A DNA stretch of 64,000 bases, from assembly GCA_963662405.2 (NCBI GenBank), contig CAXXKT010000002.1:96001-160000 (forward strand), written 5' to 3'. The stretch's first letter is position 1; each line of letters starts with the position of its first letter. A program made the translations under genes and the position numbers. The notes beneath the pieces are model-generated. The model made no database searches and was not told where the DNA came from. It was given only the letters and a program-made list of their open reading frames with translations. The DNA comes from Syntrophales bacterium (lineage in GTDB: Bacteria > Desulfobacterota > Syntrophia > Syntrophales > UBA2210). Shown piece after piece: positions 40,151 through 47,965 of this stretch.

Positions 40151-41254
40151 TCAGAGAGACCGTATCCCGATAACGTCCCTGACATGCATATGCGTTGATT
40201 CACTGACGTCGAGGCCTTCCTGGACCCTCTCCAGGACCAGGGGCTTTTCTTCGGGGAACTTGTATCCCTCGTAGTCCTGCCTGAAGAGCAGACCGCCCCG
40301 CCGGTCGAGCCATGAGTTCATCGCGTGATCGAAACAGACCCGGGAGGTTACGTCAAGTCCCTGAACCATCAGCTGCACCTCTTCGAGCCGCTCATGCGGG
40401 GATGAGAGGTGCAGGTCTTCCCGCTCATAGTCTTCGTAGATGGGGGTCCCGATCCTCGGCACGAAGGGCCGCGAACGGATGTAGTGGGGATTGATCGCCG
40501 TGAGGACGCGGGCGGTATTCTCCGCGTGCTGGCGCCACCGCTCCCGTCCGCCCAGATCGGGCATCCAGTACTCCGAAAGCTGAAAGCCCGCCTCCATGGC
40601 CTTTCTCCCGCCCTCGATCTGTTCTTCGCTCGTCACACCCTTTCGGACAATCCCGAGAAGTTCGTCGTCCCCCGTCTCGAGCCCCACGTGCAGGCGGGTG
40701 AGACCGGCATCACAGATCTCTTTCAACTGTTCAACCTTTCTCTGAGCGAGGGTCTTCGACCGTGCATAGGTGGTAACCCGCTTCAGCGAAGGAAGCGTCT
40801 TCCTGAGGTATCTCAGGACCTCCACGAATTCCGGCGGCCGCATGATCAGGCTGTTCGCGTCTTGGAGAAATGCCGTTTTAGCCCCCGAGGTGAGCCAGTC
40901 AAAGACAGAGATAAAACAGTGGTTGGTGTAGAATGACGGATCGGACCGCAGGATGGTTATCGCCACATCCCGGTTTATACGCCCGCCATGCCCCAGCTTC
41001 CGTGAGATTGCCTGTATCTCATCGATGATTCCCCTGACCGAATCGATATCGGCCTTTATCTCCTCCACCGACCGATAGACAAATTTTTCGCCCTTATACA
41101 TCTCGCAGAAGGTGCACTTGTTCCAGGGGCAGTTCCGGGTAAAGCGAAGGAGCAGGGAAAAACTCCCCCCCTCGCTCGGTGGTCGGTACATTCCAATATC
41201 AAAGGAATACCGCTTGAGTTTTTCAATATGGGGTCTATAGTCGCTTCCTGGCAT
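40151..41254 (-). CDS. Radical SAM protein (uncharacterised family)
   Basis: YRPPSE, CPWNKCTFC, FLQDAN, HVGLETGDD, FDH. Confidence 0.88.
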   Translation of the reverse strand: MPGSDYRPHIEKLKRYSFDIGMYRPPSEGGSFSLLLRFTRNCPWNKCTFCEMYKGEKFVYRSVEEIKADIDSVRGIIDEIQAISRKLGHGGRINRDVAITILRSDPSFYTNHCFISVFDWLTSGAKTAFLQDANSLIMRPPEFVEVLRYLRKTLPSLKRVTTYARSKTLAQRKVEQLKEICDAGLTRLHVGLETGDDELLGIVRKGVTSEEQIEGGRKAMEAGFQLSEYWMPDLGGRERWRQHAENTARVLTAINPHYIRSRPFVPRIGTPIYEDYEREDLHLSSPHERLEEVQLMVQGLDVTSRVCFDHAMNSWLDRRGGLLFRQDYEGYKFPEEKPLVLERVQEGLDVSESTHMHVRDVIGIRSL

Positions 41255-41515: not shown

Positions 41516-42022
41516 ATGTCTACTGAGAAACATCCCGATACGAGGAAGCTTCTTTTTCTGATTGCAGAGCTCTGCCAGACGGCGCGGTGCTGCCGACAGG
41601 ATGCCCTCTTTTGCGAAGGAGTTACCTTCTCACAGTTTCTTATCCTCGACGCCCTGGCCACCCAGGGTTTCATGAAGATGGCGGATCTCCATACCATCCT
41701 TGCCGTGGAGAAGAGCACCACGACGCGTCTCGTCAAACCCCTTATAGAAAGCAATCTGGTGCGACAGGAAAAGATGAACCACGACCGGAGAGCGATATAC
41801 CTGCGCACCACACCCGAAGGGGAAGAAACATACCGGCGGGTATGGGACTGTTTCACAGAATTTGCCGCGGCAATCAGGGGAAAGATTCCGGAAGATGAGC
41901 GGCCACAGGTCTATCGTGCCCTCGGTATCATCCTTGATGCGATACGTGATACATCGTCTGTATGCAATCGTAATAATACAAAGGATGCACATAATGGACA
42001 ATCCGAATTTCAGATCATTTGA
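41516..42022 (+). CDS. Cys-rich MarR-family transcriptional regulator
   Basis: VTFSQF..L, KSTTTRLVKPL, DRR..Y..T..G wing; N-terminal C-x4-CC-x6-C. Confidence 0.88.
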   Translation: MSTEKHPDTRKLLFLIAELCQTARCCRQDALFCEGVTFSQFLILDALATQGFMKMADLHTILAVEKSTTTRLVKPLIESNLVRQEKMNHDRRAIYLRTTPEGEETYRRVWDCFTEFAAAIRGKIPEDERPQVYRALGIILDAIRDTSSVCNRNNTKDAHNGQSEFQII

Positions 42023-43157
42023 GTATATTCAGAAAGCGCCGGACCTCGGGGTCATCTCCGCCCCCTCTACGTGAGCGACATCCTGCGGGGTTCAGGCGAA
42101 CCCCCCGCGCATGGATCAGCCCTTTGTGATCGGGTCAGTAGAGATCGGCATCGGCCGCGTTCCCCAGGTCTCGGCATCTCTCCGATGGATCGACCACTGG
42201 GGCACAATCAAGGCACGGGCAGGGATCAACCGGATGCGCTACACCGTTGATCCCGGTCTCTACGCACTGGGAAATCCCGACACCGAGTCGCCGGTCCTCG
42301 TCACGGCAAACTACAAACTGAGTTTCGACAGCCTCCGTTCCGCCCTCCCCGGCCGCGATGCCTGGATCCTCGTCCTCGACACAAAGGGGATCAATGTCTG
42401 GTGCGCCGCCGGGAAAGGGACCTTCGGGACGGCCGAACTTGTCGCACGCATCCAATCGAGCAGGGTTGACCGGGTCGTTGCCCACCGCACGATTATCCTG
42501 CCCCAGTTGGGCGCCCCCGGAGTCGCCGCGCACGTCGTCAAAAAATTCGCCGGGTTCTCGGTCCATTACGGCCCCATCAGGGCAACGGACCTGGGACGAT
42601 TCCTCGATGGAGGGATGCAGGCGACTCCCGAGATGCGTATCAAGACCTTCACTCTCGCGGAGCGGGCGGTCCTGATCCCCGTCGAGCTGGTTCTGTCGCT
42701 CAGAGCGGCTATCATCGTCGCACTGGCCATCATCCTCATCTCCGGTCTGGGAGGTCCCGGGACCTATGGACAGAATGTCCTCTCGTACGGCATCTTCTTT
42801 TCTACCGCCCTCTTCAGCGGTGTCTTTGCCGGGGCCGTGCTGACCCCCCTCCTCCTCCCCTATATCCCGGGGCGGGCCTTTGCGCTGAAGGGGTTGCTCA
42901 TCGGCCTGGTCACCGCCGTGATCCTCCTTTTTTTTCGGAGCCCCGATATGGCGCGGTGGGCGGACCGTCTTGAGGCCCTCGCGTGGTTTTCCCTGGTCCC
43001 CGCCGTGGCGGCGTACCTGGCAATGAACTTTACCGGCGCCTCGACCTATACCTCGCTGTCGGGCGTTAAAAAAGAGATGCGATGGGCCCTCCCTCTGGAA
43101 ATAACGGCCGGAGGAGCAGGAGGCCTGCTCTGGCTGGGATCACGCTTTATTGTATAG
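41994..43157 (+). CDS. hgcA: Mercury methylation corrinoid protein HgcA, probable selenoprotein (in-frame TGA 42072-42074)
   Basis: Cap-helix motif GINVWCAAGKGTF, TANYKLSFD, PQLGAPG, C-terminal TM region ending FTGASTYTSLSGVKKE; ATG 41994 has AAGGA RBS and is in frame through the TGA. Confidence 0.93.
42085..42108 (+). other. SECIS-like hairpin after the hgcA TGA
   Basis: GGGGTTC-AGGC-GAACCCC; loop starts 19 nt after the UGA and has G at loop position 2. Confidence 0.75.
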
Positions 43158-43666: not shown

Positions 43667-44821
43667 GTGAATCTGAAAGACAAGTATGCCATTGTCGGTG
43701 TGGGGTATACCCCCCAGGGGCGGGTCCCGGACAGGACGACGCTGAGTTTTCACCTCGAAGCCTGCGCCGACGCCATTGAGGACGCGGGGCTGAAACCCGG
43801 TGATATCGACGGCCTGATCGTCTATCGTCACTTTATCCCGCCGACGGGAGAATCGGATGTCGCCCCCTACGACGTGGCGCAGCACCTCGGACTGTCGCCG
43901 ACCTTCCTCGCGCAGGACGCCAACTGATCGCGCAGCCACTTACAGCACGCAGTTGGCGCGCTCGAATCCGGTCTTTGTAACTATGTGCTCCTTTCATACG
44001 CCCACTCGGGAGACAGCATGTTCCGCATGCTCACGGAGATGGCGGGTGATGCGGCCGCCTTCGGCCACTTCGGGGCGTCCGCTGGATACGCCCTTGCCGC
44101 GCGGCGCGCCATGCACGAATTCCACACGGGACCCGACACCTGGAAACAGATCGCCGTGGGACAGCGCAGATGGGCCAATCTCAATCCGCGGGCGGTGATG
44201 CATGCCAAGCCGATGACATCCGAAGATTACTATAACGCGAAGTGGCTTGTCGAACCCTTCCGCCTCCCCGATAACTGTCTGGTCAACGACGGCGGTCGTG
44301 CCTGTATCATCACGACGGTTGAGCGGGCGCGTGATCTGAAACAGCCCCTCGTCACCATCATGGGGATGGGGCAGCACAACCCCTCGACGGCCTTTCAGCA
44401 GGCCACCTATCTGGCGGGACCGACCGGCGCCCGGCAGGCACGCGAAACCGCCTTCAGGATGGCGGGGATCACCCTCGACGATATAGACGCCTGCGAGATC
44501 TACGACTGCTTTACCTATACCGTCGAGATCACCCTCCAGGACTACGGCTTCTTCGGCCCCGGCGAGGGAGAGAACTGGTTCTCGGGAGGAACGATCGAGC
44601 CGGGGGGACAAATGCCCGTGAACACATCGGGCGGCCAGTTGTCCGAGGCGTACCACATGGGGCTGACCCCCCTTACCGAGGGGGTGATGCAGCTCATGAG
44701 ACGGTGCGGGGAGCGGCAACTCGGCCCCGCGACGGACACAAAAGAACCCGAGATTATCCTGTGCAGCGATAACGGGGCCATACTGCAGACACATTCCTGT
44801 TATGTCCTGAGGAGGTGGTAA
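43667..44821 (+). CDS. Thiolase-fold (SCP2/Ltp2/PhlC-like) protein with in-frame TGA at codon 87; candidate selenoprotein
   Basis: AIVGVGYT...DAN*SRS...DGG...EIYDCFT...NTSGGQLSEAY all in one frame; 384 aa when read through. Confidence 0.85.
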
Positions 44822-44823
44822 CC

Positions 44824-45234
44824 ATGACGTCATACGAAAAACCCCTGCCGCAGATCAATGCCGACACGAAAGAGTTCTGGAACGGGTGCAGAGAGCACCT
44901 GATAAAGATGCAGAAATGCGGCGATTGCGGAACACTCCGCCTGCCCCCGTCATTCCTCTGTCCCCGTTGCCATTCCCGGAACACGGACTGGATCGCCGCC
45001 ACGGGAAGGGGGTCGATCTATACCTTTACCGTCAACCATGTGGCCTTTCACCCGGCCTTCCAGGAAGATCTTCCCTATGTGGTTGCGGTCGTGAAACTGG
45101 ACGAGGGTCCGCACCTGCTGACGAATATCGTCGGCTGTGACCCGGCCGCGGTGCGGTGCGATATGCCCGTGGAGGTCGTCTGGGACGATGTGACCGATCA
45201 GTTCAGCTTGCCAAAGTTTCAACCGGTCGTGTAG
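44824..45234 (+). CDS. DUF35 Zn-ribbon/OB-fold protein (thiolase partner)
   Basis: FW.G, CGDC...CPRC, G.IYTFTV, PYVVA.V.LDEG. Confidence 0.92.
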   Translation: MTSYEKPLPQINADTKEFWNGCREHLIKMQKCGDCGTLRLPPSFLCPRCHSRNTDWIAATGRGSIYTFTVNHVAFHPAFQEDLPYVVAVVKLDEGPHLLTNIVGCDPAAVRCDMPVEVVWDDVTDQFSLPKFQPVV

Positions 45235-45292
45235 GATACATGATCTGCTTGTTTACGAGAGATGTACAAACCGTTAGGAAACCTGGGCTGCC

Positions 45293-47965
45293 ATGACCGA
45301 CATACACCCCAACCGGTTTTATCTGACCTCCACCGGGAGGCTGGCGCGCGACCTCACCCGTCGCTTCCGTCTCCAGTGCCTGCGCGAAGAGAAAGAGGGA
45401 TGGGAGCCCCTCCGGGCAATGAGCCTGAACGCCTGGCTCACGCTGACCTGGACCGAATCGTGGCCCGATAAGATCCCCGCTCCTGATCTGTACCGGATGA
45501 ACCTCTGGAAGGAGATGGCCGACCGGATCGCGCCCCCTCCCTCACTCGTTGCGGACACGAATCTCTGTGCCATCCTCGACGAGACCTACGGAATCATGGC
45601 GCGTCACGGGATCGAACCATCATCCGGTTTTCCCTCCACCCCCCTCGTCGAATGGCGGCGCGAGATCAGTGGGGTTTTTACCCGATCGCTCGAATCGGAC
45701 GGGCTCTTCCATCCGTCGCTTCTTCCGCTCTTGATACGCCGGGGGATAATAGACGGCAGGATCTCCCTTCCTGAAAAGATCACACTCGCCGGCTTCGAAT
45801 TCCCCGCCCCCCTGGAGCGGGATCTGTTCGCAATACTTGAGAAATACAGTGATGTCACATGTGTCATTTCCCCAGATCGCCGTCCTGAGCGTCTCGAGGC
45901 CCTGGCCCTCCCCTCTCCCGAACAGGAGGTGATCTATCTCGTCCATCGCCTCGTCCGGGATGCTCAAACGATCCCCCTTCACCGGATCGGCGTGATCGTC
46001 CCGGACATGGATCGGTACGCGAAGCATCTGGAGGGGGCCCTCAGGGATGTGACAGCCCAGGCTCCGCCCCACGGCTCTCACTGGTTCAACGTAACAAAGG
46101 GGGTTGCGCTCCTCGAGACGCACCTCATGCAGGCGGCCCTTCTTCCCCTGCGCTTCATCATCGAAGGGCAGCCCCGCGAGCGGCTCCTCTCTCTTTTCCT
46201 GTCCCCCTACTACGGATACTCACAGGGGAGGCGGCACGAGATCGCACGCGCCGACATCTCCTGGCGAAAGCGCTCCCTCGATTTCGGCCTCGACAATCTC
46301 ATGGCGGCGCTGAAGAGAGAAGATCCCCATACCTACGCCCTCATCCCCCCGGATATGCTCGACCATCTCTCCTTCTTCTGCCACAGTGAAGAGATAGGGA
46401 ATCAGAGACGGGGGTCCTTCTGGTTGGGACAACTCAGGGACCTGTGGACCCGCCTTGGCTTCCCCATCCTCGCGGACGAAAAGGATACCGTCGATAAAAG
46501 AGCCCTCGAAGAGATCACGGATGAGATCGACCGCCACCTCTCCCATACGGGGATGGATGGCCATGAATTTTCAGGTTGGCTGACATACCTCGCCTCACGG
46601 AAGACGGTGCAGACCGGCGCCGCGGAGGACGCCGGGATACAGGTTATGGGCATGATCGAATCGCGGGGCCTCGATTTTGACAAGGCGTACGTCCTCGGGA
46701 TGGACGACCGATCGCTCCCCGAACCGGCACGCCCCCTCCCCTTCCTCGATTCGACGGAGAGAAGGCTGGTCCAGGGGGGAACGGCACAGAGCCAGTACGA
46801 GTTCGCTCGTCGGTCCATAGACCACCTCATGACCTGCGCTCCGGATATCACCCTCCTCCGTGCCGAGCAGGAAGACCTCAAGCCCCTCCCTCCCTCCCCC
46901 TTCTGGCCGGGCGACAGCGACACGCGCTCTATCGATATCTGGAACACCCCCGATCCGGCCTGGTTGCGGGCCGGATGGCTCGACTCTTCCCATAAAGGAA
47001 TACATGAGAGAATATCGCCTGAACAAATGACAGAAGGACCTCTTGATCCAAGCATTATCCCCAGGACCGTCTCGGTGAGCCGGCTCCAGACGGCGGTCAC
47101 CTGCCCCTACCGCTTCTTTATCGAGAGCGTCATTAAGGTCGAACCGCTGGAGGATATCGAGGCGGATGCCTCCCCCCGCGAAAGAGGGACCCGAATACAC
47201 CGGGCCCTGGCTCTCTTTACGCAGAGGCTGAGAGAACGGGGGGTGGACCTGGGCAGCGACGAGGCGCGCACCCTCCTGACGGCCTGTGAGGATGAAACAC
47301 TCCAGAGTGTAGCGAATAAGCCACACTGGGCGGTGGAACAGAGGCGCTGGATCGGGGACAGGGACGATCCGGAGGGAGGCGGAATCCTCTCCGAGTGGCT
47401 CGACCGCGAAAGGACGCGCTGGACCGGAGGGTGGCGGTGCGTTGCCGAGGAGACCCCTTTCGACGCCCTCGCGATTCCCGGGCTCCCCTTCACCCTGCGG
47501 GGAAGAATCGACCGGGTGGATTTCAGCGACCAGGAGGGGTTCCTCCTCTGGGACTACAAAACGGGCGCCGTTCCCTCGCGTGCGGATATCGTCACGCGCC
47601 TGAAGGAACCCCAGCTCATTATCTATCTCATGGCGCTCCTTGGCGGCCATATCGCCGCCCTGGGTGACCGGATAGACGCGAATGTGCCTTTTTCGGCCGG
47701 GTATGTCCGTCTCAAGTCAGCCGGCGATATCGCCATCTCTCCGATCAAGGGGATCGAGTCCTCCCTGCAGGAGTGGCACACGGCCCTCGCCAAACTGGGA
47801 GCAATCCTGGGATCCGGTGATTTTCGGCCCGAACCCTTCCCCGTTTCGGGAACCACCGGGAGGGAGAAGACCTGCGAGGAATGCCCGTTCATAACCCTGT
47901 GCCGTGTGGGAATACGAAGCCGGCGCGCGTCGGAAACGGAGGAGACCGATGAAGGAACCGAATGA
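45293..47965 (+). CDS. addB: AddB-like PD-(D/E)XK nuclease with Fe-S staple
   Basis: ESRGLDFD, SVSRL...CPYRFF, GRIDRVD, DYKTG, QL..Y, CEECPFITLC. Confidence 0.75.
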   Translation: MTDIHPNRFYLTSTGRLARDLTRRFRLQCLREEKEGWEPLRAMSLNAWLTLTWTESWPDKIPAPDLYRMNLWKEMADRIAPPPSLVADTNLCAILDETYGIMARHGIEPSSGFPSTPLVEWRREISGVFTRSLESDGLFHPSLLPLLIRRGIIDGRISLPEKITLAGFEFPAPLERDLFAILEKYSDVTCVISPDRRPERLEALALPSPEQEVIYLVHRLVRDAQTIPLHRIGVIVPDMDRYAKHLEGALRDVTAQAPPHGSHWFNVTKGVALLETHLMQAALLPLRFIIEGQPRERLLSLFLSPYYGYSQGRRHEIARADISWRKRSLDFGLDNLMAALKREDPHTYALIPPDMLDHLSFFCHSEEIGNQRRGSFWLGQLRDLWTRLGFPILADEKDTVDKRALEEITDEIDRHLSHTGMDGHEFSGWLTYLASRKTVQTGAAEDAGIQVMGMIESRGLDFDKAYVLGMDDRSLPEPARPLPFLDSTERRLVQGGTAQSQYEFARRSIDHLMTCAPDITLLRAEQEDLKPLPPSPFWPGDSDTRSIDIWNTPDPAWLRAGWLDSSHKGIHERISPEQMTEGPLDPSIIPRTVSVSRLQTAVTCPYRFFIESVIKVEPLEDIEADASPRERGTRIHRALALFTQRLRERGVDLGSDEARTLLTACEDETLQSVANKPHWAVEQRRWIGDRDDPEGGGILSEWLDRERTRWTGGWRCVAEETPFDALAIPGLPFTLRGRIDRVDFSDQEGFLLWDYKTGAVPSRADIVTRLKEPQLIIYLMALLGGHIAALGDRIDANVPFSAGYVRLKSAGDIAISPIKGIESSLQEWHTALAKLGAILGSGDFRPEPFPVSGTTGREKTCEECPFITLCRVGIRSRRASETEETDEGTE

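Follow-up and report, generated by a model that had tools for sequence, protein, structure and literature searches.

A conserved in-frame TGA at the nucleophilic-cysteine codon of a Syntrophales thiolase-fold gene predicts a selenocysteine enzyme with a DUF35 partner

Related thiolase-fold systems

Thiolase-fold enzymes with DUF35 partners have been described as archaeal-type thiolases, in the thiolase/3-hydroxy-3-methylglutaryl-coenzyme A (HMG-CoA) synthase/DUF35 complex of Methanothermococcus thermolithotrophicus (6esq/6et9) and in Pyrococcus furiosus (7yvy), and as retro-aldolases of steroid systems, in TcLtp2-ChsH2(DUF35) (6ok1) and CtSal-Shy(DUF35) (9myr). We analyzed a stretch of 64,000 nucleotides (the window) from a Syntrophales bacterium (assembly GCA_963662405.2, contig CAXXKT010000002.1, positions 96,001 to 160,000 of the forward strand). 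It contains a thiolase-fold gene, followed by a DUF35 gene, in which an in-frame TGA stands at the codon for the thiolase nucleophilic Cys. We predict that this TGA is very probably read as selenocysteine (Sec) and that the gene product is a selenoprotein.

The predicted protein is like 6esq and 7yvy in its thiolase fold (template modelling score (TM) 0.80-0.85), in its residue 87, which falls on the nucleophilic Cys, and in its DUF35 partner, and it keeps the loop Cys of the xDCF motif of 6esq. Unlike these two proteins, to which it is 23-26% identical, it would have Sec for Cys, and Tyr residues (in YDCF and EAY) stand where they have HDCF and the His of GH(A/P). The profile E values to TcLtp2 and CtSal are 7e-62 and 3e-59, and DUF35 binding occurs in both of those systems. 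With the steroid retro-aldolases and TbSLP (5ab4-7) the predicted protein has in common the YDxF-loop Tyr, the Cys of that loop (Sal, SLP) and the second Tyr (Ltp2). The differences from 6ok1 and 9myr are that their DUF35, as given in sections of the published accounts, is a hydratase domain whereas here it is a free protein of 136 amino acids, that in the profile alignment they have no Cys at position 87 (Ser in 9myr), and that neither they nor TbSLP are selenoproteins. The putative thiolase 4u4e of Sphaerobacter thermophilus is 37% identical and aligns at full length (TM 0.83-0.88), but Ser-Ser stands there at the Cys/Sec loop, and its counterpart of YDCF reads YDSF.

Compared with known selenoproteins, the gene resembles those for formate dehydrogenase alpha, SelD and HgcA in having a UGA aligned with Cys, a hairpin with a loop G a short distance downstream, and a predicted dependence on selABCD. 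It differs from them in belonging to another family and in the proposed role of Sec, which would be acyl transfer and not redox chemistry or metal binding. A thiolase of Clostridium kluyveri that contains selenium (Hartmanis and Stadtman, early 1980s) reportedly held non-specific selenomethionine and not UGA-encoded Sec. The word thiolase is absent from the main text of the selenoproteome papers and reviews of 2006-2026 that were surveyed, a survey that did not cover the BSepDB list of 111 families. Searches of the literature in full text for selenocysteine together with thiolase or DUF35 returned nothing relevant; PMC5109826 holds both words, in unrelated passages.

The thiolase-fold gene and its in-frame TGA

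The gene and the codon in question are as follows.

43667..44821, + strand: thiolase-fold enzyme gene, 384 codons, GTG start, TAA stop, single in-frame TGA
43925..43927, + strand: TGA codon predicted to be read as Sec (U87), at the thiolase nucleophilic Cys position, from orthologue codons and the Cys of homologues

Gene calling with translation table 11 splits the frame into one piece that ends at 43927 and another that restarts at GTG 43985. The first-pass annotation had joined these two open reading frames into one, broken only by the TGA, and translation of 43667-44821 (+) with TGA as U agrees: it gives 384 residues with U87, in QDAN-U-SRSHL, as the sole recoded codon. The read-through protein matches Thiolase_C_1 of Pfam (E 6e-38). 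No NCBIfam model was reached: the best, NF004811, scored 247 bits where its cut-off is 421. Together with the DUF35 gene the pair spans 43667-45234.

The aligned column is Cys in all 120 of the best full-length homologues from a collection of 5.8 billion proteins, as expected from the initial placement of the TGA at a catalytic-Cys codon. Since gene callers truncate TGA forms, these are invisible in such a collection, and whole genomes were therefore searched in six frames. Among 61 related genomes there are 18 close orthologues, 15 with TGA at exactly the residue-87 codon and three with TGC or TGT. The class, all of one order here (339 genomes), has 41 places in 39 genomes, with one TGA in 31 and none in 10. 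The phylum (401 genomes) adds 10 genomes with a match, seven with the TGA and three with none, and a pattern search of species genomes found 80 loci, 54 with TGA and 26 with Cys codons. Tabulated by aligned codon, as had been suggested at the outset, the TGA is therefore conserved at every level (31/41, 7/10 and 54/80). After removal of duplicates, 64 distinct Sec (TGA) forms and 32 distinct Cys (TGC/TGT) forms remain. An identical TGA codon in 64 distinct orthologues is far beyond chance.

Hosts of the Sec form include Syntrophales/Syntrophaceae, Smithella, Desulfobacterales, Desulfatiglandales, Desulfarculaceae and the isolate Desulfatitalea alkaliphila M08but; the Dehalococcoidia/Chloroflexi loci are Cys forms in 12 of 12 cases. 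Each of the 63 full-length Sec forms has exactly one stop. The median ratio of nonsynonymous to synonymous substitution rates (dN/dS) is 0.124 over codons 1-86 and 0.135 over codons 88-383 (422 usable pairs), so both halves appear to be translated and under purifying selection, and the relaxation downstream of the TGA that would have marked a decaying gene is not seen. Contigs from runs X1, X2 and X6 (three studies; X1 is possibly the source sample) span the TGA, and none of the differences listed for them falls there. The base right after the TGA is U in 62 of the 64 Sec forms; L108 and L117 have G, and there Ala or Gly replaces Ser88.

Candidate selenocysteine insertion sequence

Bacterial selenocysteine insertion sequence (SECIS) elements, by the bSECISearch criteria, are stem-loops that follow the UGA; their apical loop lies at a distance of about 16-37 nucleotides and has a G near its start. 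A short hairpin follows the TGA of the thiolase-fold gene:

43945..43961, + strand: candidate SECIS hairpin of 17 nucleotides, stem GCACGC/GCGCGC (one pair of it an A.C mismatch here), loop AGUUG at 43951-43955

Counted from the U of UGA the hairpin spans +20 to +36 and its loop +26 to +30. The stem GCACGC-N5-GCG[U/C]GC is exact in 58 of the 64 Sec forms, and the loop is AGUUG in 54, CGUGG in five, GGUCG in three, and AGUUA and CGUUG in one each. The G at loop position 2 (G27) and the U at position 3 (U28) are invariant in all 64. The 32 Cys forms, by comparison, have 29 different 17-mers at this site. When entropy at third codon positions was scanned over the whole gene, the lowest windows of the Sec forms started at codons 89-95 (0.48-0.93 bits vs a gene mean of 1.34), and no such dip appeared in the same scan of 31 Cys forms. 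Nowhere else in the gene are synonymous sites as strongly constrained as at the hairpin of 43945-43961, and this constraint is limited to Sec forms.

The RNAalifold consensus is this same hairpin, and pair counts over 62 distinct Sec-form segments give 88% of cells paired. Its distance of 26 nucleotides from the U to the loop and its early loop G fit the bacterial SECIS model, and binding of SelB is predicted. In the selD and hgcA genes of the host genome, too, the TGA is followed by a hairpin whose second loop base is G.

Another stem, at 43930-40/43951-61, had been pointed out in the first-pass annotation. It exists, as the minimum-energy fold from +3 (-12.2 kcal/mol), but 70.5% of its cells are paired, and it was rejected as a conserved element: of its 10 pairs, four (three from the lower stem) are each lost in 27-47 of 62 orthologues. 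Folded as a single sequence, 43920-43990 is unremarkable (z = +0.93; 172 of 200 shuffled sequences have an equal or better fold), and Rfam at gathering thresholds gave 0 matches in the whole window. A contig of 37 nucleotides that lies exactly over the hairpin (43934-43970) has a depth far above its flanks in runs X1 and X6, which is expected if many co-occurring organisms share the invariant stretch.

Selenocysteine machinery and genetic code

The first-pass annotation depended on a host able to make and insert Sec, and the parts it named are all in the genome: selA, a tRNA-Sec with anticodon TCA, SelB, whose wing domain was found within a frame of 657 amino acids, and selD, which itself has a Sec TGA at C3:552165 (gene G000:C3:552135-553065, outside the window). 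SelA was found in nine of 10 other Sec-form genomes tested and in 10 of 10 Cys-form genomes; the latter count led us to reject loss of the Sec machinery as the cause of the Cys forms. TGA is the commonest stop of long frames (577 of 1282 open frames of >=400 codons), so the genome uses the standard code and TGA has not been reassigned.

Fold and active site

An AlphaFold model of the protein has a thiolase fold (predicted local distance difference test (pLDDT) 82.5, predicted TM (pTM) 0.87), in which residue 87 follows strand 80-83 and precedes helix 91-100. In Foldseek, 4u4e, 6ok1, 9myr, 7yvy and 6et9 are hit with probability 1.00 and TM >=0.8, and the chains 4u4e, 6ok1, 9myr, 7yvy and 6esq of the Protein Data Bank are matched at full length. 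Other close solved relatives from Foldseek and profile searches are BbsB (7pxp), PhlC (5m3k) and the SCP2 thiolases. In profile alignments U/C87 falls on the Cys of VEAACASGS (6esq) and EAACAS (7yvy), YDCF falls on HDCF of 6esq, and EAY falls on the GH(A/P) loop.

Among 63 Sec and 31 Cys forms there is no variation at U/C87, R89, Y279, D280, C281, F282, N319, S321, G322, G323, E327 and Y329, nor at the further cysteines C104, C204 and C276; H330 varies among the 94 forms. The YDCF and EAY motifs, already seen in the first-pass annotation, are thus present and invariant in the family (Y279-D280-C281-F282; E327/Y329). The acid/base Cys of the HDCF-type loop is kept as C281 in 94 of 94. Because both thiolase cysteines are kept and Tyr stands at the His positions, we describe the active site as a thiolase/aldolase hybrid. 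A site with both thiolase cysteines and both aldolase tyrosines bears on how the Sal and Ltp2 aldolases evolved from thiolases.

Predicted mechanism

Going by conservation, SelB with Sec-tRNA(Sec) would be held at the UGA by the hairpin at 43945-43961 and would insert Sec as residue 87. By homology to the solved DUF35 complexes, the full-length protein may fold as a thiolase-type dimer flanked by the zinc-ribbon/oligonucleotide-binding (OB) DUF35 protein. The U87 selenolate, at the elbow between strand and helix, would attack the 3-keto group of a 3-ketoacyl-CoA to form an acyl-selenoester, C281 of the YDCF loop would protonate the departing acetyl-CoA enolate, and CoA would then free the shortened acyl-CoA. 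Y279 and Y329 are predicted to occupy the His positions of SCP2-type and archaeal thiolases.

We moderately favor an acyl-enzyme thiolase or acyltransferase with Sec as the nucleophile and a Tyr-based polarization of the thioester, a prediction made from sequence comparison. Taken as a whole, Sec insertion together with an acyl-enzyme thiolase is probably the best explanation of the data. On balance, although with some reserve, this would be the first enzyme family to use Sec as a covalent acyl acceptor, through an acyl-selenoester, in a non-redox cleavage or formation of C-C bonds in CoA esters. If true, a thiolase fold with a Sec nucleophile would bring acyl transfer and C-C bond chemistry within the range of selenium biochemistry, and the natural Sec/Cys pair in close relatives would allow the benefit of selenium in such a reaction to be measured. 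Gene callers cut the frame at the TGA, and a widespread enzyme of syntrophs and sulfate reducers is therefore listed as a pseudogene or fragment and missed by metabolic reconstructions and selenoproteome counts.

Several observations weigh against a Sec-dependent acyl-enzyme thiolase. Some concern the hairpin. The near-invariance of the relocated hairpin leaves little room for the covariation test proposed in the first-pass annotation: covariation is thin, with only one compensatory change, from G-C to A-U in L033 with a G-U intermediate in L040. An A.C mismatch interrupts the stem in 28 of 62 sequences, including the host genome, and the energy here is weak at -6.9 kcal/mol, compared with -10.4 to -11.8 in the U34 variants. 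A second helix, here called helix A, uses part of the same sequence:

43917..43926, + strand: 5' arm of a candidate alternative helix of 9-10 base pairs (helix A); the arm takes in the first two bases of the UGA, and its partner strand is 43950-43959

Helix A and the hairpin are mutually exclusive, and helix A pairs as well as the hairpin does (90.6% of cells in 62 sequences, with zero compensatory changes), while the loop variants CGUGG and GGUCG break it. Ala85 is encoded by GCC in 51 of 64 Sec forms vs 14 of 32 Cys forms.

Two further points of this kind concern the machinery. In the assembly selD carries a +1 frameshift at a G run near 552,575; in this three-contig assembly we take it for an indel error, and the frameshift is probably an artifact of assembly. 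A real frameshift would disrupt the synthesis of Sec by this strain. One genome with the TGA form (G451, 98% complete, locus L043) has no SelA match with PF03841. At L043, Asn86 is replaced by Ser (AGC).

The remaining points concern the active site. Both thiolase active-site His residues, of the HDCF loop and of the GHP oxyanion-hole loop, are Tyr (Y279 and Y329) in 94 of 94 forms, model confidence is low at 322-330 (the EAY loop), and 4u4e, the closest solved structure, is without both cysteines. According to a 2025 JBC study of CtSal (PMC12329534), Tyr302 and Cys304 of YDCY are the base/acid pair of the CtSal retro-aldolase, TcLtp2 has Tyr294 (YDHF) and Tyr344, with the second Tyr as catalytic acid, and TbSLP, a YDCF protein, is suggested to be a possible aldolase. 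By analogy, the Tyr and Cys of YDC(F/Y) may correspond to the CtSal acid-base pair and the second Tyr to the TcLtp2 acid.

Alternative explanations

These likenesses lead to the main rival, a selenoprotein that is a Sal/Ltp2-like retro-aldolase or related lyase acting on 3-hydroxyacyl-CoA, which we regard as possible but unlikely. In such an enzyme Y279 would be the base, C281 or Y329 the acid, and U87 would have some other task, such as positioning the substrate, transferring protons or protecting the site. The motif YDCF and the Tyr of EAY are invariant, as this would have it, and they recall the YDCY pair of CtSal, the tyrosines of TcLtp2 and the suggested aldolase TbSLP; the nearest solved structures besides 4u4e are the aldolases 6ok1 and 9myr, and enoyl-CoA hydratase is the commonest neighbor other than DUF35 (8/96 loci). 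Yet by profile alignment the aldolases do not share the residue at issue: position 87 is Ser in 9myr and has no Cys aligned to it in 6ok1 (the pairwise alignment to 6ok1 is ambiguous), whereas the present family has Cys or Sec there without exception (120/120 and 94/94). Sec normally stands in for a catalytic Cys. The free-standing DUF35 protein also speaks against this rival, as in the steroid systems DUF35 is fused to a hydratase, and hydratase genes adjoin just 8 of the 96 loci here.

It is improbable that U87 is a redox element, forming a selenenylsulfide with C281, C104, C204 or C276 as an oxidative switch or in a redox reaction. Most known selenoproteins are redox enzymes, according to reviews (PMC9312934, PMC13188914), and the protein has several further invariant cysteines; against this, position 87 is the thiolase nucleophile position, the protein has no redox cofactor domain, and its neighbors include no conserved redox partner.

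A true stop, whether by nonsense pseudogene, sequencing error or a split gene (86 amino acids plus 278 from GTG 43985), is very hard to uphold: the two pieces called with table 11, the unremarkable single-sequence fold after the TGA and an assembly that seems to hold at least one indel (selD) are outweighed by the same TGA in 64 distinct sequences across several orders, equal purifying selection on both sides with exactly one stop per Sec form, nucleotide-level constraint confined to TGA forms, and the X1, X2 and X6 contigs, which cover the codon with none of their listed differences on it.

Evolution of Sec and Cys forms

A FastTree maximum likelihood tree of 94 sequences, rooted at the midpoint, has a clade of Cys forms only, with those of the Chloroflexi, and a large Sec clade in which about nine Cys lineages are nested. 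The nested Cys forms L004/L052, L060, L083 and L062 retain the hairpin sequence with at most one change, and these relics point to recent replacement of Sec by Cys. The midpoint root and the hairpin relics are the basis for this direction of change. On this midpoint-rooted tree it looks as if the Sec family had a single origin in anaerobic Desulfobacterota and was retained in dozens of syntrophic and sulfate-reducing lineages, with several reversions to Cys.

DUF35 partner and gene neighborhood

The gene that follows the thiolase-fold gene is the DUF35 partner:

44824..45234, + strand: DUF35 partner gene (zinc ribbon and OB fold, 136 amino acids), PF01796 E 8e-26, PF12172 E 2e-9

The partner is intact, as had been claimed, with both Pfam domains (OB_ChsH2_C and zf-ChsH2). 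Its start is most likely ATG 44824, 8 nucleotides past AGGAGG (44810-44815), and its translation is closely coupled to that of the thiolase-fold gene. Of 96 distinct loci, 94 have a DUF35 homologue next to the thiolase gene.

The other neighbors at the 96 loci are enoyl-CoA hydratase (8), acyl-CoA ligase (6), acyl-CoA dehydrogenase (5), short-chain dehydrogenase/reductase (5) and HgcA (5); no HMG-CoA synthase was seen among the neighbors. The neighborhood was considered as a route to the substrate and set aside, with only DUF35 conserved and all others at <=8 of 96 loci. The minority neighbors hint at a beta-oxidation-like use in syntrophic and sulfate-reducing Desulfobacterota.

Upstream of the thiolase gene are an HgcA-like gene and an HgcB-like ferredoxin. 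In the HgcA-like gene (41862-43157, +) the frame reads on upstream, into an N-terminal extension, through a TGA at 42072-42074 that is followed by a strong hairpin. This corresponds to the N-terminal Sec extension described for HgcA in a preprint (bioRxiv 10.1101/2022.07.06.499078); the context here is S-T-U-A-T-S-C, unlike the C-U dipeptide of the described HgcA selenoproteins. The first-pass annotation had used the TGA-containing hgcA next door as an argument against decay. Its in-frame TGA holds up, but its adjacency is only synteny in a few close relatives (5/96 loci).

Farther out lie a radical S-adenosylmethionine protein upstream (40151-41254, -) and a protein of 890 amino acids with a PD-(D/E)XK nuclease domain downstream (45293-47965, +); neither is conserved beside the thiolase at other loci. 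A terminator-like hairpin at 45225-45245 (+), identified by its match to the consensus, overlaps the DUF35 stop and is followed by a T-rich tail. The arrangement is consistent with a two-gene transcription unit that ends at this hairpin.

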